64,000 nt of DNA from Candidatus Parcubacteria bacterium. GTDB taxonomy: Bacteria; Patescibacteriota; Minisyncoccia; UBA6257; JAGOQP01. This document shows positions 17,912 through 52,705 of this stretch, piece after piece; position 1 is the stretch's first letter; every line of letters starts with the position of its first letter. Position numbers and translations under genes: made by a program. The notes beneath the pieces were generated by a model, which saw only the letters and a list, made by a program, of their open reading frames with translations, was not told the origin of the DNA and made no database searches. The stretch is from contig AP024682.1 of NCBI GenBank assembly GCA_025999395.1, forward strand, positions 69,386-133,385, written 5' to 3'.

Positions 17912-18054
17912 GATTTTTTTAAAAAGACCTTTTTAATTCTTTAATTAGGATTATAAAGGATTTTTTTAAGAAAGAGAAGAAATGTAAATTTTAGACAAGA
18001 GAAATTTCGAGAAAAAGCTTTAAGCACCCAAAAAATTTGAAGCAATCTTAAATC

Positions 18055-18084
18055 AAAAAACATCCCAAAAAAGGATGTTTTTTG
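18055..18084 (-). terminator. rho-independent terminator ending the copper operon
   Basis: The hairpin AACATCC-loop-GGATGTT is flanked by an A-run and a T-run (bidirectional appearance). It lies ~35 nt past the stop of the Met-rich gene. Confidence 0.7.
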
Positions 18085-18117
18085 AGGGTAAACTCAGTAA
18101 CCTCTTGTTAGCAATCC

Positions 18118-18609
18118 CTACGACTTAAGAGATTTGATTAGTTTAACAATTAAAATCACTAACAACACAAAAACTCCCAAAGGAATGCCGACAAATAAAA
18201 TCACTGCTAAAATCATCAAAAATCCCATCACCCATCCCCAGAAAGAACCAGACCAACTACCCATCATTCCTCCAACTGTTTTTCCATCGCCAATTTCACC
18301 ACAACTTGAAGACCAACCAGTCCCCATCATTGGCATCATTAAATAACCCTTATTTGATTGAAAAGATTTTCCCATAAACTCCTGTATTTTTTGGAAAAAA
18401 TCCTCTCCCATCATTTCTACCATCTCTTTTTTATAATTTTCGTAATTCTGCCCCATCATTTTCTTCATCCACACCTCCCCTACCGAACGCGGATCGCTAT
18501 TTCCTAAATCCCAGTCGCCATCCATCATATGAGCAGAAACAACTAATGGTAAAAGGAATCCGCCACTAATTATTCCCGCCACAATTAAAAGAAAAAGATT
18601 TTTTTTCAT
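18118..18609 (-). CDS. methionine-rich secreted/membrane-anchored protein (candidate Cu(I)-binding)
   Basis: 163 aa; signal peptide; mature region dense in MM, MxM and MxxM clusters (HMMDGDW, KKMMGQ, EMVEMMGE, YLMMPMMG, GGMMGS); C-terminal TM; last gene of the CopA operon. Confidence 0.6.
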   Translation of the reverse strand: MKKNLFLLIVAGIISGGFLLPLVVSAHMMDGDWDLGNSDPRSVGEVWMKKMMGQNYENYKKEMVEMMGEDFFQKIQEFMGKSFQSNKGYLMMPMMGTGWSSSCGEIGDGKTVGGMMGSWSGSFWGWVMGFLMILAVILFVGIPLGVFVLLVILIVKLIKSLKS

Positions 18610-18685
18610 ATTTTTAATATTTTAATTCTAATAAATTTTTAATAATAATTTAACGACAAAGTTTATTAAGGCTAATCTTCTTGAT

Positions 18686-20998
18686 TCATTTTTCAGAAAA
18701 TTTCAATCGTTTCAATCTAAGCGAGTTTAACACAACCGAAAGAGAAGAAAAAGCCATCGCTACCCCAGCCAAAATCGGATTCAAAAGTGGTCCGCCAAAA
18801 GGATAAAGAATACCGCTTGCTACTGGGATAAGAAGCAAATTATAAATGTAAGCCCAAAACAAATTTTGTTTTATGTTAGATAAAGTTTTTCTGGATAAAA
18901 TAATTGCCTTATAAATTCCTAAAGGATCTCCTGAAACTAAAGTAATTTGAGCTGATTCAATAGCAATATCGGTTCCTGTTCCAATAGCAATTCCTACATC
19001 AGCTTGGGTAAGAGCGGGAGCGTCATTAATTCCGTCTCCTACCATCGCCACTGTTTTTCCTTTTTCTTGAAACTCTTTAACTTTTTCAGATTTTTGTTGA
19101 GGCAAAACTGAAGCTAACACATTTTCTCTTTCTATGCCTACTTTTTGAGCGATAGCTTGAGCGGTCTGAGGACTGTCTCCAGTTATCATCCATACCTTTA
19201 TTCCTAATTTTTTTAACCTCTCAACGGTTTGAGCAGCGCTTTCTTTGAGAGTATCAGCAATTCCAATAATTCCCAACACTTGTTTTTCATCAGATAAAAT
19301 TAAAGCAGTTTTTCCCTGTTGACTAAGTTTTTCAATTTCTGATCGAAAGTGACTATTAAGAGAAACACCATTTTCTTCAATAAAGCTGCTATTTCCCAAA
19401 AGATATCTCTTGCCTTCTATATAACCTGCTAATCCTTTTCCGGTTGTTTGTTTAAAGTTATTAACCTCCAAAAGAGAAAGATTTTCTTTCTTAGCCTCTT
19501 CAACTATTGCTTTATCCAAAGGATGATTAGTGTTGACTCCCAAGCTAGCAGCAATCTGTAAAACTTTTTCTTTCGTCAAGGAGTGATTATCAGCACTGAG
19601 TTGAATTTCTGTGACAGCTGGCTGACCTTTAGTAATAGTGCCGGTTTTATCTAAAATCATTATCTCAACTCTTCCTGCTATTTCTAAAGCTTGAGCATTT
19701 CTGATAATAATTCCATTTTCTGCACCCTTACCAGTTCCAGTAATAACCGCAATCGGCGTCGCCAACCCTAAAGCACAGGGGCAAGCAACGATTAAAACCG
19801 CTACCGCATTAATTAAAGCATAGGATAATCTTGGCTCTGGACCAGTTAAAAACCAAATCCCAAAGGTAATTGCCGAAATTACCAAAACCAAGGGAACAAA
19901 AATGTTAGTAATTTTATCAGCTAATTTTTGGATAGGAGCTTTAGAGGCTTGAGCTTCTTGAACAATTTTTACGATTTGAGCCAAAAATGTTTCTTTGCCA
20001 ACTTTCTCGGCTCTCATTTTAAAGACGCCGCTTTTATTTATCGTGGCTCCAATAACTTTATCGCCCGCCTTTTTATCAACCGGGAGTGATTCACCGGTTA
20101 CCATTGATTCATCTAAAGAAGCTTGACCCTCAATAATCACTCCATCAACCGGAACCTTTTCTCCTTGTTTGACTAGCAAATAATCACCAACCTTAACTTG
20201 GTTTACATCAATGTCATGAATTTCTCCTTTTTCATCAAGACGATGAGCAATTTTTGCCTGAAGTTTCAAAAGTTTTTTAAGCGCCTCTGAGGCTGATCCT
20301 TTAGCTTTAGCTTCCAAATATTTTCCCAAGATAATAAAGGTAGTAACCACTACCGCCACATCAAAGTAAGGCTCTAGACGAGCTATAAGCGAACTACTAA
20401 ACTCAGAAATAAGATTAGCCAAAACCACTACCGTCGAAAAAAAATAAGCAGCTCCAGTACCTAAAGCTACTAGACTATCCATCCCCGGCCTTAGATTTTT
20501 CAATTCATAATACATCCCTCGCCAAAATTGCCGACCCACCCAAAATTCAACCGGCGTTGAAATTACCAAAAGAATTAGTAAAGAAAGTTTTTCAGGAATA
20601 AATTCATTCAACTTCCCTCCAAAGCTTAAAAATAGAACTATCAGCGAAGCAAAAACACCAAATGTTAATTTAATTTTCAAAACTTTCAACTCAGCCTCGT
20701 CTTCCATTTTGGCATGATCGTGTTCCTTAAGGGATTGATTAGGATGATCGGTGTGATGATTGCTGTGATCATGATGATGATAACTGATGTTTTCGCTAAC
20801 CACCTCATAACCCACCCTTTCAACGGCTTCAATTATTTTCTGATCATCTATTTCTTCACCGCATTCAACAAAAAGTTGATCTGAGGCAAAGTTAACCGAA
20901 GCACTCTTGACTCCCTCTAATTTTCTTACTGATTTTTCTATACTGGCAGCGCAGGAGGCGCAATCCATCCCCTTTATTTTAAAAATTTTCTTTATCAT
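18686..20998 (-). CDS. copA: copper-translocating P1B-type ATPase CopA
   Basis: 770 aa; N-terminal HMA domain with [13 protein letters not shown]; His-rich linker [12 protein letters not shown]; CPC in TM6; DKTGT phosphorylation site; GDGxND. Confidence 0.93.
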
Positions 20999-21017
20999 AA
21001 ACCCTTCTTAACTATTT

Positions 21018-21302
21018 TTATTCATTATTTTTGCCACAAAATTTATTATGAAGCCAAGCAATTAACCAAGCAATAACATAAGTATAAACCAAAACCTCAA
21101 ACAAGCCGATAACAAATCCTTCTCCAGTAACCCGAGTAGTGACATTTAAATTAACTAAGTGCACAAGATAGCCAAAAAGCTTTAATCCTAAAGAAGGCCA
21201 GAGAGCAACGAAGACGGCGCAAAGAGTATAAATTCCTCCCATCACCAAAGCGGCTGCTTTGGCAAACCCACTTTTATGAATTTGACAAAAATGATTTTCC
21301 AT
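21018..21302 (-). CDS. small integral membrane protein, hypothetical
   Basis: 94 aa; three predicted TM helices; two Cys near the termini; embedded in the copper operon. Confidence 0.4.
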   Translation of the reverse strand: MENHFCQIHKSGFAKAAALVMGGIYTLCAVFVALWPSLGLKLFGYLVHLVNLNVTTRVTGEGFVIGLFEVLVYTYVIAWLIAWLHNKFCGKNNE

Positions 21303-21346
21303 AATTTTGTTTTTAATATTTTAATATTTTATCCGACCTTTTTAGG

Positions 21347-22291
21347 TTACTTTTCAATTGTGTGGTTTTGGTGATGATGACAACAAGATTTATCCTCTCT
21401 CTTATCATTAGAAAAATCGCCAGCTTCATCTTTCCTTCTTAAAGCATTTGCAATGATAATACCAGTTCCCACAACTATTAGGGTTAAAATAAGCCACCCG
21501 CCGCCGGGGAAAACAGATAAAAATTGCTCTAGAGATTTGGTTATTTTGGCTAAATAAAGATTGATTGTCATCTGATAGCTACCTCCCCCCATTGCCAACT
21601 GATTAGTCCAATTAAGATAGAGAATTAAAATTCCTATAAAGAAATACATTAATCCCGCAATGAGCTCTGAAACCGTTAAACTAATTTCTTTACCCAAAAA
21701 AGAGTAGTTAAGTTTTTTCTTAAAAGGCAAAAATTTGGCTGTGAAATTTGTTTTATCAAGAAAATAAGCGATGATAAACAAAGGAACCACCATCCCTAAG
21801 GCGTAAACCAAAGAATAAATTCCTCCCCACAATAATGATCCGGGCAAAACCGAAAGCGCCATCACTCCTGCTAAAACCGGTGCGCAACATAAAGTAGCAA
21901 AACCCGAAAAAATTCCCAAAACAAAAATTGATCCCGCTCCCTCAACTTTCACCTCTTTCATTCTAGATTTTACCGAAAATGGCAAAGAAAGATGTTTGCC
22001 GATAAGCAAAAAAATTCCCAAAATTATCAAGAAAATCCCTCCAGCCGTGTACAACTGGCTGTGGTATTTTTGGAAAAACTGTCCAATAGCCGCTAGCCCC
22101 AAACCCAAAGGAAGAAAAACAGTCAAAATTCCTAAAAAGAAAATTGCCGTCATTAAAATAACCGTTCGTTTTTGTTTAAAAATAGAGGCCAAATAAGTCG
22201 GCAAAAGCACCGAAACACAACAAGGAGCAAAAAGAGCAGCGACGCCAGCAATAAAAGCAGTAATAAGAGAGGTGGTAATTAAAATATCCAT
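21347..22291 (-). CDS. CcdA/DsbD_2-family transmembrane thiol-disulfide (or metal-transfer) protein with Cys/His-rich tail
   Basis: 314 aa polytopic membrane protein; Cys pairs in TM helices (APCCVSV, ATLCCAPV) as in CcdA/DsbD_2; C-terminal CCHHHQNH. Confidence 0.7.
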   Translation of the reverse strand: MDILITTSLITAFIAGVAALFAPCCVSVLLPTYLASIFKQKRTVILMTAIFFLGILTVFLPLGLGLAAIGQFFQKYHSQLYTAGGIFLIILGIFLLIGKHLSLPFSVKSRMKEVKVEGAGSIFVLGIFSGFATLCCAPVLAGVMALSVLPGSLLWGGIYSLVYALGMVVPLFIIAYFLDKTNFTAKFLPFKKKLNYSFLGKEISLTVSELIAGLMYFFIGILILYLNWTNQLAMGGGSYQMTINLYLAKITKSLEQFLSVFPGGGWLILTLIVVGTGIIIANALRRKDEAGDFSNDKREDKSCCHHHQNHTIEK

Positions 22292-22298
22292 ATTAGGT

Positions 22299-22904
22299 TT
22301 AATTTAATTTGTTTATTTCTTCTGCTAATTGATCATTTCTAATAGCCATGGCAGGGTCATCTAGAAAAAATCTCACGATCCCTTCTTTATCAATTATAAA
22401 GTAGGTATGCCCCGGAAAAATTCCCGGATGCATTGAGGATTTTAAAGAAAGAACACCGTAAGCCAAAGAGACTTTTCGATCAACATCAAAGAGAATTTTG
22501 GCTTTTTTGTATTGAGGCATTTGAGCTTCAATCTTGCGCCATTGATCGGGGGTATCGACAACAATTGAAAAAGCAACAACCTGTTCGTTATTAAATCTTT
22601 CGTCGGTTCCCAATTTTTCGATCTGATTCCAACAGGCCGGATAACACATTTGCCCCTCATTGAAAAACAAAACCACCTTTTTCCCTCTTAAATCACTAAG
22701 TCTTACTATTTTTCCGTCAATATCCGGCAAGGAAAAATCGGGGGCGGCTTTTCCTAAAAGATCTTCGCCTGAAACATTTTGGAAGGATTCTTTCTTTTCA
22801 GGAGAAAGATTGCTTTTTGAATTATTGGGAAGAAAAGATAAAATGCCCACCCCAACAATAATAACAACTGCTAAATAAATTAAATTGGTTAATTTCTTAC
22901 TCAT
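22299..22904 (-). CDS. TlpA/ResA-like thioredoxin-fold thiol-disulfide oxidoreductase, membrane-anchored
   Basis: 201 aa; N-terminal TM; redoxin fold with CxxC motif (CYPAC). Confidence 0.75.
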   Translation of the reverse strand: MSKKLTNLIYLAVVIIVGVGILSFLPNNSKSNLSPEKKESFQNVSGEDLLGKAAPDFSLPDIDGKIVRLSDLRGKKVVLFFNEGQMCYPACWNQIEKLGTDERFNNEQVVAFSIVVDTPDQWRKIEAQMPQYKKAKILFDVDRKVSLAYGVLSLKSSMHPGIFPGHTYFIIDKEGIVRFFLDDPAMAIRNDQLAEEINKLN

Positions 22905-22926
22905 AATCCCAATTTTTATTCCTTAC

Positions 22927-23877
22927 TTATAATGAACAACCACTCGCTGATTTCCTTTGAGCTGGTGCTCCCAAACTACACCCTGAAGAAGGCTGCAGCA
23001 CCGGCGCCTGAAGAGAGCAGCCGCTGGCATTAGAATTATTAGAAGAAAGGTTAAGGGTAGCTAAGGGTCTGGCCACATTTTGAGCAAATCCTTGAGCGCT
23101 AGAAAACTTAGCCGAGAGAGCTACTCGCGGATCAACTTCTGAAAGTTTTTTCTTTTCAATTAAAAGAAAGTAGTCAGCTAACTGATTGTACTGATCAGGA
23201 AACCAAACAGAATTAAACTTAAGAGCTAAGTTATAAAGCTCATCATCAGAAAGCCCTTGTGCCACTCCCAAGGATAACACTCCCAGCATCGCCATTCCGT
23301 GATTACAATCAGCGAAACGAGCGCTGTTACCACAACAAGGCCGATAGATAGTAGCAGCAATTTCGGCTACTTTCTTTTGTTGATCAAGAGTAAGGTTTAG
23401 GATATTGTGTTTGGAAAAATGATCAGAGGCAGAACCCTTAGCCACAATCCAGCCGCCGACAGAAGCTAAATTTTCTAATTGCCCTCTTTCCTTGAGAGCT
23501 TTCAACTCAACAAGATATTGATTTTCTTGAGCTAATCCCAATCCCCAAAAAAGATTAAGGAAGGTTTGATTATTATCTGGAGTAATAACAATTTCTCCTT
23601 TCTCCACCGAAAGATTTCCAACCAAATTCTGATACTTTTCCAAATCAATTGTTCCTGTCTCAATTAGTTTTTGAGGAAAATCTTGTAAATCAAGGCCGGT
23701 TTTGAAGGTGTAGGTGTTTTCAGAAACTTTTTGTAAAGTATTATTTTCATTACTTATCTTTTGATTAGAACGAGCGGATTCTTTTTGGGTAGAGTAGGAA
23801 CCCAAATAAGCAATCCCCACCATTGCTATTGCCACCAAGACTACCCCTCCTAAAAAAGTTAGTATTTTGTCTTTCAT
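22927..23877 (-). CDS. membrane-anchored Cys-rich hypothetical protein with C-terminal SGCSL repeats
   Basis: 316 aa; N-terminal TM; conserved-looking PCCGNSARFADCNHG cluster; three SGCSL repeats at the C-terminus; first structural gene after csoR. Confidence 0.5.
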   Translation of the reverse strand: MKDKILTFLGGVVLVAIAMVGIAYLGSYSTQKESARSNQKISNENNTLQKVSENTYTFKTGLDLQDFPQKLIETGTIDLEKYQNLVGNLSVEKGEIVITPDNNQTFLNLFWGLGLAQENQYLVELKALKERGQLENLASVGGWIVAKGSASDHFSKHNILNLTLDQQKKVAEIAATIYRPCCGNSARFADCNHGMAMLGVLSLGVAQGLSDDELYNLALKFNSVWFPDQYNQLADYFLLIEKKKLSEVDPRVALSAKFSSAQGFAQNVARPLATLNLSSNNSNASGCSLQAPVLQPSSGCSLGAPAQRKSASGCSL

Positions 23878-23890
23878 TTTTATTAAAAAA

Positions 23891-24163
23891 TTACTTATTA
23901 AACAATTTCACCACCTGGGAGAGTTCTTTGATCATTTTCTCGATTTGATTTTTGTTTTTTAGGTTGCGCGGATTACTAAAACAAGTTTTTAGATGATTTT
24001 CTAACATTACCTGATGAGCCGATTTTAAAAGGCCAATTGCCGCTAAATTCTGCTGCATAATCTCTACACAATAAGCATCGGTTTCAACCATCTTGATAAT
24101 TTTTTCTATTTGACCGCGAGCCTTTTTAAAAGCTACTAAAGCTAATTGTTTTTCTTTTGTCAT
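23891..24163 (-). CDS. csoR: CsoR/RcnR-family metal-sensing repressor, Cu(I)-type Cys-His-Cys fingerprint
   Basis: 90 aa all-helical; C32, H57, C61 spacing (C-x24-H-x3-C) matches Cu(I)-sensing CsoR; first gene of the copper operon. Confidence 0.85.
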   Translation of the reverse strand: MTKEKQLALVAFKKARGQIEKIIKMVETDAYCVEIMQQNLAAIGLLKSAHQVMLENHLKTCFSNPRNLKNKNQIEKMIKELSQVVKLFNK

Positions 24164-24196
24164 TTCGTTTTTTAATTTTTATTTTGATAAACCTCG

Positions 24197-24211
24197 ACCT
24201 ATGGTATAGGT
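24197..24211. promoter_or_regulatory. candidate CsoR operator (6-3-6 inverted repeat ACCTAT-GGT-ATAGGT)
   Basis: Dyad symmetry ~35-50 bp upstream of the csoR start codon, inside the operon promoter region. Confidence 0.4.
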
Positions 24212-24301
24212 ATATGATAAAAAAGAAAAAATAAAAAAGCAAATGGCTTTTGTGAATAACTAAACTGGTTTAAATTTCTACTAGTTTTTTTCTACTAGTT
24301 T

Positions 24302-25498
24302 TTAAGGATTTAAGTATTCAACCTGAACATTATCTATCCACAAAGTTCCTTCTTCTCCATCGTTGCCATAGAGATATAAAGAAACATCGTGATTATTTAG
24401 TTCCCAATCAGAAGTTAAACTAAACTCTTGGGTAATTTTATTCCATTCTTTCTTTTTGGGAACTACTTTGCTAGCAAGAGCTGTATCAAAAACATAAGCA
24501 TTTTGAGAATTAGACCAATGAAGTAAACCGAATTTAGCTAATTTATTTGGGTTATCAGTTTTAGCCATAAATTTTACTCGAACTATTGTTTGAGCTTTCC
24601 AGCCATAAGTAACACCGGGAATCTGCCAAGTTTGATAAATTTCTTGAAGCCGATGAGGATAACCAAACTGAGTGTTTTTATCTATAAATTCAATGCAACC
24701 AGAATTGCCTATTCCACAATTTGGAGAAAAATGACCATGATAGCCAATCGAGGAGTTAGGAACTGAGGAAAGATAACCAGTGGAAAATCCGCGAGTCGGC
24801 TGATAACTGCCATTTAAATTTGTATCCCAGCCGGGATTATAGGAATCGGAAAGATGATTAAGATTAGTATTAACCACTATATTTCCAGAAATATCCCCCT
24901 CGAAACCATCGTCTTTTTCTTCATAAGAATAATCATTTTTGCCTCCATCGGTTGAGGTTTTATCTTTTTCTCCCCCAAGAGTATATTTATCACTTTCGAG
25001 ATTGTTGGCTGAAATATAAAAATTGTTATTGCTATCTACCGAATAAACATAATAACTTTCTGATAAATCGCTATTTATCGGATCAACGGGTAAAGAATTT
25101 CCAATCGAGGAAGATAATTTATCAAAATCAATGGGAATCCAGCCGCTACCATCGGTTTTGAGTAGGTTTTCTTCAGAAACACAGCTATACGACCATCCTA
25201 AGGGAAGCTCGGGAAGCTTTAAATTACTACAAGTAGGAGAAGAATCAGGAAGAGAAACATAAACGGTGTTAGCGGCCCCCATTGATAAATTTCGAGAACT
25301 GTATTTAGCTTTAAGAAGATTAATTTCCAAATTTTTTATATCGGAAATTCTTTTGATGTCTCGAGATTCCTTTAAAATCTCGGCTGGATTTATCATCAAA
25401 ACAGTTCCACCTCCAAGAATTGCTAAAATCCCCATCACTATTAAAAGTTCTATCAAGGTAATAGACCTCTTCTTGCCTTCTTTAATAAAAAAATTCAT
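24302..25498 (-). CDS. type IV pilin-like protein (prepilin-type N-terminal helix) with large C-terminal domain
   Basis: 398 aa; N-terminus KKRSITLIELLIVMGILAILGG resembles a class III signal/methylation motif, although position -1 is not Gly; ~350-aa Ser/Asn/Tyr-rich C-terminal domain. Confidence 0.6.
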   Translation of the reverse strand: MNFFIKEGKKRSITLIELLIVMGILAILGGGTVLMINPAEILKESRDIKRISDIKNLEINLLKAKYSSRNLSMGAANTVYVSLPDSSPTCSNLKLPELPLGWSYSCVSEENLLKTDGSGWIPIDFDKLSSSIGNSLPVDPINSDLSESYYVYSVDSNNNFYISANNLESDKYTLGGEKDKTSTDGGKNDYSYEEKDDGFEGDISGNIVVNTNLNHLSDSYNPGWDTNLNGSYQPTRGFSTGYLSSVPNSSIGYHGHFSPNCGIGNSGCIEFIDKNTQFGYPHRLQEIYQTWQIPGVTYGWKAQTIVRVKFMAKTDNPNKLAKFGLLHWSNSQNAYVFDTALASKVVPKKKEWNKITQEFSLTSDWELNNHDVSLYLYGNDGEEGTLWIDNVQVEYLNP

Positions 25499-52592: not shown

Positions 52593-52632
52593 TTATGGAC
52601 AAAAACTCAAGCTCGGTTGCTAATAAAATTTG

Positions 52633-52705
52633 TCGGCGCGGCAGGACTCGAACCTGCGACCAATCGTGTATAAGACGACCGCTCTACCAACTGAGCTACG
52701 CGCCG
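52633..52705 (-). tRNA. tRNA with anticodon UAU (Ile-like; reads AUA)
   Basis: Hand fold: acceptor CGGCGCG/CGCGCCG; D-arm GCTC-AGTTGGTA-GAGC; anticodon arm GTCGT-CTTATAC-ACGAT; T-arm GCAGG-TTCGAGT-CCTGC; CCA not encoded. Confidence 0.65.

Follow-up and report, generated by a model that had tools for sequence, protein, structure and literature searches.

Results

Organization of the operon

The window analyzed in this study is a stretch of 64,000 nucleotides from a Candidatus Parcubacteria bacterium (assembly GCA_025999395.1, contig AP024682.1, positions 69,386 to 133,385). It contains an operon of seven genes on the minus strand, in the order csoR, g2, g3, g4, g5, copA and g7, where the repressor CsoR and the P1B-type ATPase CopA are found together with three envelope proteins (g2, g3 and g4) homologous to the thioreduction chain of cytochrome c maturation. 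The arrangement is a conserved copper-island module of the Candidate Phyla Radiation (CPR) and the DPANN archaea, built from repurposed cytochrome-maturation thiol proteins, one of which belongs to a large family without an existing model. We propose, with about an even chance of being right, that it is a CsoR-repressed copper-stress operon combining efflux by CopA with an extracytoplasmic relay that reduces thiols or maintains Cu-thiolates.

The first-pass annotation of this region, made from the sequence alone, had described seven minus-strand genes separated by 7 to 76 nucleotides, running from csoR to a gene for a Met-rich protein and ending at a terminator. All the open reading frames (ORFs) and the hairpin are indeed present. 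According to the ORF list the intergenic gaps from csoR to g7 are, in order, 13, 22, 7, 44, 19 and 76 nucleotides, and no hairpin was found on folding in the last of them, between copA and g7. Upstream of csoR lies a gap of 138 nucleotides with promoter-like hexamers and a palindrome, and 3' of g7 there is an intrinsic-terminator-like 14-bp hairpin with a U-run (18053-18085, or 18047-18085 at its widest, minus strand; centroid dG -17.7 kcal/mol, z -2.6). The genes flanking the seven-gene unit are likewise on the minus strand, so that a common orientation is uninformative here; the unit is delimited by the promoter/operator gap and the terminator. Its GC content (0.36-0.375) is that of the rest of the window, and composition therefore gives no sign of a horizontal acquisition of the operon. 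Families were assigned to the seven ORFs by Pfam and NCBIfam scans, in which g2 and g7 matched no family.

The sensor, its candidate operator and the copper pump

The csoR gene (23891-24163, minus strand, as for all features of the operon below) codes for a CsoR-family Cu(I)-sensing repressor of 90 amino acids (PF02583, E 2e-18, 66.9 bits against a cutoff of 22.8). Its nearest solved relative is the CsoR of M. tuberculosis (2hh7, E 1e-14), and the alignment places C32, H57 and C61 residue for residue on the Cu(I) ligands C36, H61 and C65 of this protein. The C-H-C fingerprint announced in the first-pass annotation, the lack of which had been named as a reason to abandon the copper interpretation, was thus confirmed. 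The promoter-like region 5' of csoR (24214-24256) matches the consensus pattern as TTCACA-17-TATTTT (24256..24228) or as TTGCTT-17-TATCAT (24242..24214). Just 3' of the -10 candidates stands a CsoR-box-like inverted repeat (24197-24211), ACCTAT-ACC-ATAGGT, which includes TACC-ATA-GGTC. Among 48 related loci, 31 carry the box ATACCCC-N3-GGGGTAT about 25 nucleotides 5' of csoR, which is of the classical G-tract CsoR operator type (PMC3902906). Instead of this G/C-tract box, the window has a short AT-rich palindrome, and the same short form (TCTACC-TAT-GGTAGA) is found at the locus of the closest csoR relative (L043). Judging from this degenerate candidate site, regulation of the operon by CsoR is likely.

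The copA gene (18686-20998) codes for a P1B-1 Cu(I) ATPase of 770 amino acids, matched by TIGR01511 (611 bits against a cutoff of 397), PF00122, PF00702 and PF00403. The motifs GMDCASC of the HMA domain (10), CPC406, DKTGT450, N-x6-YN-x4-P (712) and M-x2-SS (748) were located, as well as a His-rich stretch (74-95), in agreement with the earlier description of a P1B ATPase with CPC and a His-rich stretch. Every motif that defines membership of the P1B-1 group is present, namely the HMA CxxC, CPC in transmembrane segment (TM) 6, N-x6-YN-x4-P in TM7, M-x2-SS-x5-[NS] in TM8, and DKTGT. In the established P1B classification, this set is the Cu(I)/Ag(I) P1B-1 signature.

Two smaller proteins accompany the pump. 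The first, g5 (21018-21302, 94 amino acids), is a small membrane protein of the DUF5676 family (PF18926, E 1e-14). Since this is a '2TM' family, the three TM proposed at first for g5 were not retained. Its conserved residues are C28 in TM1, H48 in V-H-L-V-N, and H85/N86 in an H/Y-N motif near the C-terminus. The DUF5676 gene lies 0 to 40 nucleotides upstream of the CopA gene in 8 out of 15 related loci, an adjacency recorded with the window in L007, L008, L042, L045, L063, L068 and L075. A literature search on DUF5676 returned nothing. From its position, g5 is probably an undescribed CopA accessory. The second, g7 (18118-18609, 163 amino acids), begins with a predicted signal peptide or anchor, which is followed by an extracytoplasmic domain containing MMG motifs; a further TM anchor is predicted at the C-terminus. 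Methionine makes up 18 of its 163 residues (11%), which bears out the Met-rich character attributed to the last gene, and the conserved pattern is LGExWMxxMMG...MMGxDF...AMGK...MMPMMG. Though small, with 15 representative clusters, the g7 family is genuine. It is the sole rare component of the operon, as only one of the 86 g2 loci described below contains it.

The CcdA-like membrane protein g4 and the thioredoxin-fold protein g3

The g4 gene (21347-22291) codes for a CcdA/DsbD_TM-like protein of 314 amino acids with seven predicted TM. It passes the DsbD_TM threshold (E 2e-9, 37.4 bits against a cutoff of 27.1) and also matches DsbD_2. Hydropathy and the positive-inside rule give a six-TM core with the N-terminus outside, followed by a seventh TM. 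In CcdA proteins, TM1 and TM4 each carry a single conserved Cys within a PC motif; g4 has Cys at both sites, but as vicinal pairs, APC24C25 in TM1 and LC135C136AP in TM4. The corresponding motifs ALFAPCC and CCAPVL are invariant across the g4 subfamily. The tail C303-C-H-H-H-Q-N-H, predicted to be cytoplasmic, is restricted to the closest relatives. The first-pass annotation had recognized both the CcdA/DsbD_2-like character and this CCHHHQNH tail, but it had overlooked the vicinal pairs. An identical protein (100%) is encoded in a Candidatus Parcubacteria metagenome-assembled genome, and identities within the subfamily are 50-70% across Patescibacteria and Aenigmarchaeota/DPANN archaea.

The g3 gene (22299-22904) codes for 201 amino acids with a thioredoxin fold (AhpC-TSA, E 1e-20; Redoxin, E 9e-14) behind an N-terminal anchor. 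The topology prediction called for earlier places the domain outside the membrane. The presumed active site is M-C87-Y-P-A-C91-W, and this MCYPACW-type CX3C is kept in all of the top 120 homologs. E83, W92, M158, H159 and H166 are also invariant in the family alignment. The 'TlpA-like CxxC thioredoxin' of the first-pass annotation was consequently corrected: the motif is CX3C, accompanied by two invariant His. The nearest solved relatives are Bcp-type peroxiredoxins, the pneumococcal Etrx and ResA, with no Sco protein among them. In the alignment to 2ywn, H166 takes the place of the peroxiredoxin Arg, a slot that holds the cis-Pro in thioredoxins and the Cu-ligand His in Sco proteins.

Three known families were considered for g3, and none was retained. 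The Redoxin/AhpC-TSA fold and the extracytoplasmic membrane anchor expected of TlpA/ResA/CcmG proteins are present. However, a TlpA/ResA-type protein would have W-C-x-x-C and a cis-Pro, where g3 has CX3C in all top 120 homologs and H166 in the Arg slot. A peroxiredoxin of the Bcp/PrxQ type would have P-x3-T/S-x2-C, which is absent (no Thr/Ser at -3, no Pro at -7), and the Arg is replaced by His166. For Sco1/SenC, the CX3C and the His are present, but g3 has no PF02630 match and an archaeal ortholog reaches E 0.16. These features point to a distinct thioredoxin-fold subfamily, whose site could be redox-active, Cu-binding or both.

Both proteins are 50-65% identical between Patescibacteria and Aenigmarchaeota or other DPANN archaea (g4: P0145, P0153, P0170, P0174; g3: P0305, P0329, P0345). 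Such identities suggest that the g3-g4 pair was transferred horizontally between the domains, among ultra-small organisms.

The g2 family and its probable CcmH-like domain

The g2 gene (22927-23877) codes for 316 amino acids, with an N-terminal anchor, an extracytoplasmic part that includes a putative CcmH-like core, and three C-terminal SGCSL repeats. At least 554 protein clusters belong to the family; they all carry the annotation 'hypothetical', and nearly all come from Patescibacteria. A scan of species-representative genomes found it in at least 581 species-level genomes, again nearly all labelled Patescibacteria/CPR. The invariant motif of the family is Y-R-P-C-C-G-N-S-x3-D-C-N-H-G-M-A-M-L-G, which corresponds in the window to Y178-R-P-C181-C182-G-N-S...D-C191-N-H193 and is predicted to lie outside the cell. 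The C-terminal end G-[GS]-C-[GS]-[VIAL]-COOH (C-x-x-COOH) is found in 114 of 120 members, in one to three copies. In the window there are three (SGCSL; 22927-23020 for the C-terminal region), the terminus being C-S-L-COOH. This Cys tail may act as an arm that swings, for metal or redox transfer, or else as a signal for modification.

The relationship of g2 with CcmH is remote, and several comparisons bear on it. The highest-probability Foldseek match of g2 in the PDB was the E. coli CcmH, with modest scores. With hhalign, the g2 family aligned to 12 CcmH/NrfF sequences with P 0.004, pairing RPCCGNS..DCNH with LRCPKCQN..DSN, and QG-x-SE-x-E with EGKS-x-x-EI; against two CcmH sequences only, the alignment was not significant (E 0.16). 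The strongest bridge between the two comes from archaea. Of the top 120 g3 homologs, 16, most of them archaeal, have an N-terminal domain LCPCCGQ...CC...GLSExDVI..KYG fused to the g3 part, and their genes lie directly upstream of a g4 ortholog. With 29.5-32.2 bits, this fused domain is above the Pfam cutoff for CcmH (25). By hhalign it aligned to CcmH with P 1e-7 (probability 94%) and to the g2 family with P 7e-5 (probability 63%), and all three hhalign comparisons (g2 with CcmH, g2 with the fused domain, the fused domain with CcmH) agree in register. Also, the fusion of a CcmH-like domain to g3 homologs speaks for a functional link between the two.

Against this, none of 30 g2 family members matched PF03918 (CcmH), and the CcmH motif L-R-C-x-x-C is absent from g2, which has Y-R-P-C-C-G-N-S-x3-D-C-N-H. 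The g2 alignment profile searched against PDB sequences gave only a chance Hsp40 match (E 0.5). Taking these comparisons together, we consider it quite probable that g2 contains a CcmH-like domain. The protein had been described as an uncharacterised Cys-rich membrane-anchored protein; the anchor and the richness in Cys stand, whereas 'uncharacterised' no longer applies to what appears, from hhalign and the archaeal fusion, to be a remote relative of CcmH. Because several defining motifs are absent, g2 and g3 are not assigned, by their sequences, to the TlpA/ResA, peroxiredoxin, Sco or CcmH families. A Bacillota protein annotated as CcmH, encoded on a Cytobacillus firmus plasmid (L098, 172-669), has PPGC-x8-C and not LRCxxC, with the same spacing as C182...C191 of g2. 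This hints that the g2 motif derived from a Gram-positive-type CcmH.

Copper linkage across CPR and DPANN genomes

We examined 86 loci containing a g2 homolog, the genes being counted by single-sequence phmmer. CopA was found in 67 of them, CsoR in at least 48, a DsbD-like gene of the g4 type (CC/CC) in about 36 and DUF5676 in 16. The g3 gene was present in 19 loci, always with g4 and always adjacent to it. When a canonical CcdA was used as query, a single-Cys CcdA (NPC...FPCTGGP) was found to adjoin g2 in about 36 further loci, and in 7 of these an ordinary WCPHC thioredoxin lies between the two genes. Overall, a CcdA-type neighbour of g2 occurs in about 73 of the 86 loci; 13 have none, several of which are incomplete.

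Seven other loci were chosen independently, via g3 or g4 homologs (L099, L102-L107). The two genes are adjacent in all seven, and their neighbours code for P1B ATPases, HMA, YHS, cupredoxin or DUF5676 proteins. In archaeal loci, MarR, PadR or CopY-like regulators take the place of CsoR. Whether the loci were chosen via g2, g3 or g4, the neighbours include P1B ATPases, CsoR, HMA, YHS, cupredoxin and multicopper oxidase, and the copper linkage proposed for the thiol module is therefore well founded.

The first-pass annotation had also considered that the thioredoxin and CcdA-like genes might be found with cytochrome c maturation genes in related genomes, which would indicate a generic role. No heme-handling Ccm genes were detected by phmmer with E. 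coli CcmB, CcmC, CcmE and CcmF in the window or in the 86 loci, and no heme-handling Ccm or Res genes occur among the Pfam-annotated neighbours in 12 looked-up loci. The window itself has only two C..CH strings in ORFs of at least 80 amino acids. Patescibacteria have been reported to have no respiratory complexes, yet to encode copA (PMC8672522). In our literature search, no work was found that connects CcmH or CcdA with CsoR/CopA in CPR organisms or that describes the module. The composition of the operon had at first been judged unusual for such a small genome. This view had to be abandoned, as the g2 family occurs in hundreds of genomes and the arrangement is widespread in CPR and DPANN; the seven-gene arrangement with its rare Met-rich protein is one local variant of a common CPR module.

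Other genes recur in these islands. An ICMT/PEMT-family methyltransferase gene is present in 13 of about 82 g2 loci, and in L003 it is directly upstream of g2. Three recurrent families of CPR copper islands are unannotated, namely a TM His/Cys protein of about 140 amino acids, a CPxC membrane protein and a Gly/Met-rich TM and SHOCT protein, present in 49, 24 and 21 loci, respectively; examples are found at L033 7177-7569, L017 4115-4438 and L062 6827-7087. DUF3105, DUF302, YHS, DUF1573 and DUF305 genes also recur. A search of the window ORFs for the recurrent island families (140-residue TM His/Cys, CPxC TM, SHOCT, ICMT and others) found none.

Other features of the window

Upstream, the operon is adjoined by a gene (24302-25498, minus strand) for a protein of 398 amino acids, whose N-terminus, KKRSITLIELLIVMGILAILGG, resembles that of type IV pilins and whose C-terminal domain is large. 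Right after its stop codon there is a tandem direct repeat (24275-24300, minus strand), AACTAGTAGAAA, in two copies with a period of 14, followed by a weak hairpin AAAAGC-CATTT-GCTTTT and a T-run. Elsewhere in the window, ARAGORN identified a tRNA-Ile with the anticodon TAT (52632-52705, minus strand). This anticodon is uncommon, bacteria usually reading AUA by a lysidine-modified CAT tRNA.

Discussion

A proposed copper-stress operon with a thiol relay

In the mechanism that we propose, CsoR would bind the promoter-overlapping palindrome and would release it when C32, H57 and C61 take up Cu(I). CopA, by its P1B-1 type, would then expel Cu(I), and g5, encoded beside it, would probably assist the pump. 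The proteins g4, g3 and g2, homologous to the series CcdA, CcmG/ResA and CcmH, would form a three-protein thiol relay at the outer face of the membrane, where g4 would carry reducing equivalents across the membrane and g3 and g2 would receive them. While copper is being expelled, such a relay could keep extracytoplasmic Cys reduced, including the Cu(I)-binding thiols of g2 and g3 and those of surface proteins. It would reverse copper-catalysed disulfide formation and allow thiolates to hold the exported Cu(I), for which the membrane-tethered g7 may supply thioether ligands. In an organism without c-type cytochromes, the job of the relay is probably copper defence. We prefer electron transfer mainly because in many genomes the partners of g2 are canonical CcdAs and ordinary thioredoxins. 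The adjacency of g4 to a thioredoxin-fold gene, in all 19 loci with g3 and in the 7 independently chosen ones, is suggestive of such a transfer.

Several observations weigh against this proposal. The Cys patterns differ from those of proven dithiol-disulfide relays, in the manner expected of Cu(I)-thiolate sites: vicinal CC pairs replace the single Cys in g4, CX3C and a His replace CxxC and a cis-Pro in g3, and RPCC-x8-CNH replaces LRCxxC in g2. The g2 protein falls below every Pfam threshold, and its link with CcmH is remote and partly transitive. The candidate operator of the window is a degenerate, AT-rich form of the CsoR box. The Met-rich g7 is rare, both among the loci and in its number of clusters. 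The loci showing co-occurrence were mostly selected via g2, which biases them toward copper islands, and only seven were independent. Finally, every step of the scheme rests on sequence or on what is known of the families.

The Cys patterns lead to a different explanation, which we consider possible but doubtful, in which the module moves Cu(I) itself. The g4 protein would be a translocator of thiophilic metals on a CcdA scaffold, providing a second route of copper export or sequestration beside CopA: its four mid-membrane Cys would form a Cu(I) site, the CCHHHQNH tail would collect the metal, and g3 (a Sco-like CX3C with a His) and g2 (Cys3His with a swinging Cys arm) would accept and hold it. 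This scheme fits the vicinal Cys pairs, which every member of the g4 family keeps in TM1 and TM4, and the tail that resembles a metal-binding site on the predicted cytoplasmic side. The invariant CX3C, His166, M158 and H159 of g3, together with the invariant Cys3His and the nearly constant G-C-x-x-COOH end of g2, also speak for it, and HMA-DsbD_2 fusion proteins were found in 15 g2 loci. CC pairs are the Hg(II) ligands of MerT and MerF, and the DsbD family lies within the LysE superfamily, which includes metal transporters; the C-terminal Cys end of g2 resembles the Cys tail of MerA. However, the roughly 36 g2 loci with a canonical single-Cys CcdA (NPC...FPC), some with a WCPHC thioredoxin, are typical of electron transfer, and g2, g3 and g4 are all homologs of thiol:disulfide oxidoreductases. 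Also, the His/Cys tail of g4 exists only in its closest relatives, g3 has no SCO1/SenC Pfam match, and there is no obvious reason for another Cu(I) exporter in addition to CopA. The electron relay and the Cu(I) relay are not mutually exclusive. The further step, that g4, g3 and g2 became a dedicated chain for Cu(I)-thiolate translocation and hand-off, evolved from the cytochrome c electron chain and shared between CPR and DPANN by horizontal transfer, seems to us rather unlikely.

It is improbable that the thiol module serves the maturation of cuproproteins, delivering copper to extracytoplasmic enzymes in the manner of Sco, TlpA or PCuAC rather than for defence. The idea draws on related loci where g2 adjoins a multicopper oxidase (L003) or a cupredoxin (L005, L105, L106), and on the Sco-like CX3C/His pattern of g3. 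On the other hand, the operon of the window encodes no cuproenzyme, no Sco or PCuAC family match was obtained, and CopA is a far commoner neighbour than an oxidase or a cupredoxin. Control by CsoR means expression under copper excess and not under scarcity, which, from what is known of the family, also argues against it. Still less credible is a response to another thiophilic stress, be it Ag, Hg, Cd or reactive sulfur sensed through a CstR-like paralog of CsoR. Cys-rich ligands also bind Hg, Ag and Cd, and P1B-1 pumps also move Ag(I). The CsoR family includes non-copper sensors such as FrmR and TTHA1953 (PMC10318464). Nevertheless, the sensor of the window has the copper-type C-H-C, with the M. 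tuberculosis CsoR as best match, and the pump has the Cu(I)/Ag(I) signature; the genes found nearby in related loci point specifically to copper (multicopper oxidase, cupredoxin, YHS), and neither MerA nor MerR was seen among them. As for a generic cytochrome c maturation system of the CcdA/ResA/CcmH kind that merely adjoins copA, the homology of g2, g3 and g4 to Ccm thioreduction components is what recommends it. It is effectively excluded by the lack of CcmC/E/F-type genes in the window, in the 86 loci and among the neighbours of the 12 looked-up loci, by the persistence of the CopA/CsoR linkage across CPR and DPANN, by the occurrence of only two C..CH strings in window ORFs of at least 80 amino acids and by the reported lack of respiratory complexes in Patescibacteria (PMC8672522).

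Significance of the module

The copper-stress operon with a thiol relay thus remains our preferred explanation. A few proteobacterial systems, such as Scs and DsbD, are known to confer copper tolerance by reducing extracytoplasmic thiols. Here, a whole CcdA-CcmG-CcmH chain, with its Cys motifs systematically altered, is joined to CsoR and CopA in organisms without c-type cytochromes. Hundreds of CPR genomes show this arrangement, and so do DPANN archaea, where two of the domains are fused. It provides a functional context for the g2 family, which has no Pfam model, for DUF5676, and for a distinct CC/CC subfamily of CcdA. Our data suggest that the protection of envelope thiols or the buffering of Cu(I) matters to ultra-small episymbionts. 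As a natural experiment, the module also allows one to ask whether a CcdA scaffold can pass from the transport of electrons to that of metal.

Comparison with known systems

The csoR-copZA and cso operons of Bacillus, Mycobacterium and Streptomyces share with the window a C-H-C CsoR, a promoter-overlapping palindrome, in the window a candidate operator, and a P1B-1 CopA. In contrast, the window operon has no CopZ gene, five extra envelope proteins and a palindrome of the short AT-rich form. By analogy, g4 recalls MerT and MerF in its Cys pairs in TM and in the cytoplasmic tail, and g2 recalls MerA in its Cys two residues from the carboxyl end. No sequence relationship with the Mer proteins was detected, however; MerR, MerA and MerP are absent, and the pump and the sensor are of the copper type. 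Sco1/SenC and CopG (DUF411) resemble g3 in the thioredoxin fold, the CX3C and the downstream invariant His, a pattern that suits Cu binding. Unlike Sco1/SenC, g3 has no significant PF02630 match, and its nearest relatives are the Bcp peroxiredoxins, Etrx and ResA.

The cytochrome c thioreduction chain is similar in having a CcdA-type conduit, an anchored thioredoxin-fold protein, with ResA among the relatives of g3, and a putative CcmH-like helical Cys domain, all in the same predicted topology. The differences are that the operon has no CcmABCDEF or ResBC and that the module always lies within copper loci. Further, the Cys are arranged as CC/CC and not C/C in g4, as CX3C with a His and not CxxC with a cis-Pro in g3, and as RPCC-x8-CNH in g2, or LCPCCG..CC in the fused domain, and not LRCxxC. 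The g2 protein also has an extra domain of about 110 amino acids and the Cys tail.

In the ScsABCD system of Salmonella and in DsbD-dependent copper tolerance, a conduit of the DsbD family feeds extracytoplasmic thioredoxin-fold proteins and so makes the cell tolerant of copper. The operon of the window would share this logic. Domain content sets it apart, as g4 has none of the periplasmic domains of ScsB, and a CcmH-like protein is found instead of the DsbA/DsbG-like ScsC. The thiol module is, moreover, in one operon with CopA, probably under CsoR. The Scs-like interpretation of the first-pass annotation is therefore valid for the coupling of a copper pump with an extracytoplasmic thiol module, but apparently not for the origin of the proteins, whose homology is to the thioreduction branch of cytochrome c maturation rather than to Scs. 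The operon is closest to Scs/DsbD-type tolerance in its predicted working, whereas by descent its thiol proteins belong to the Ccm thioreduction chain.

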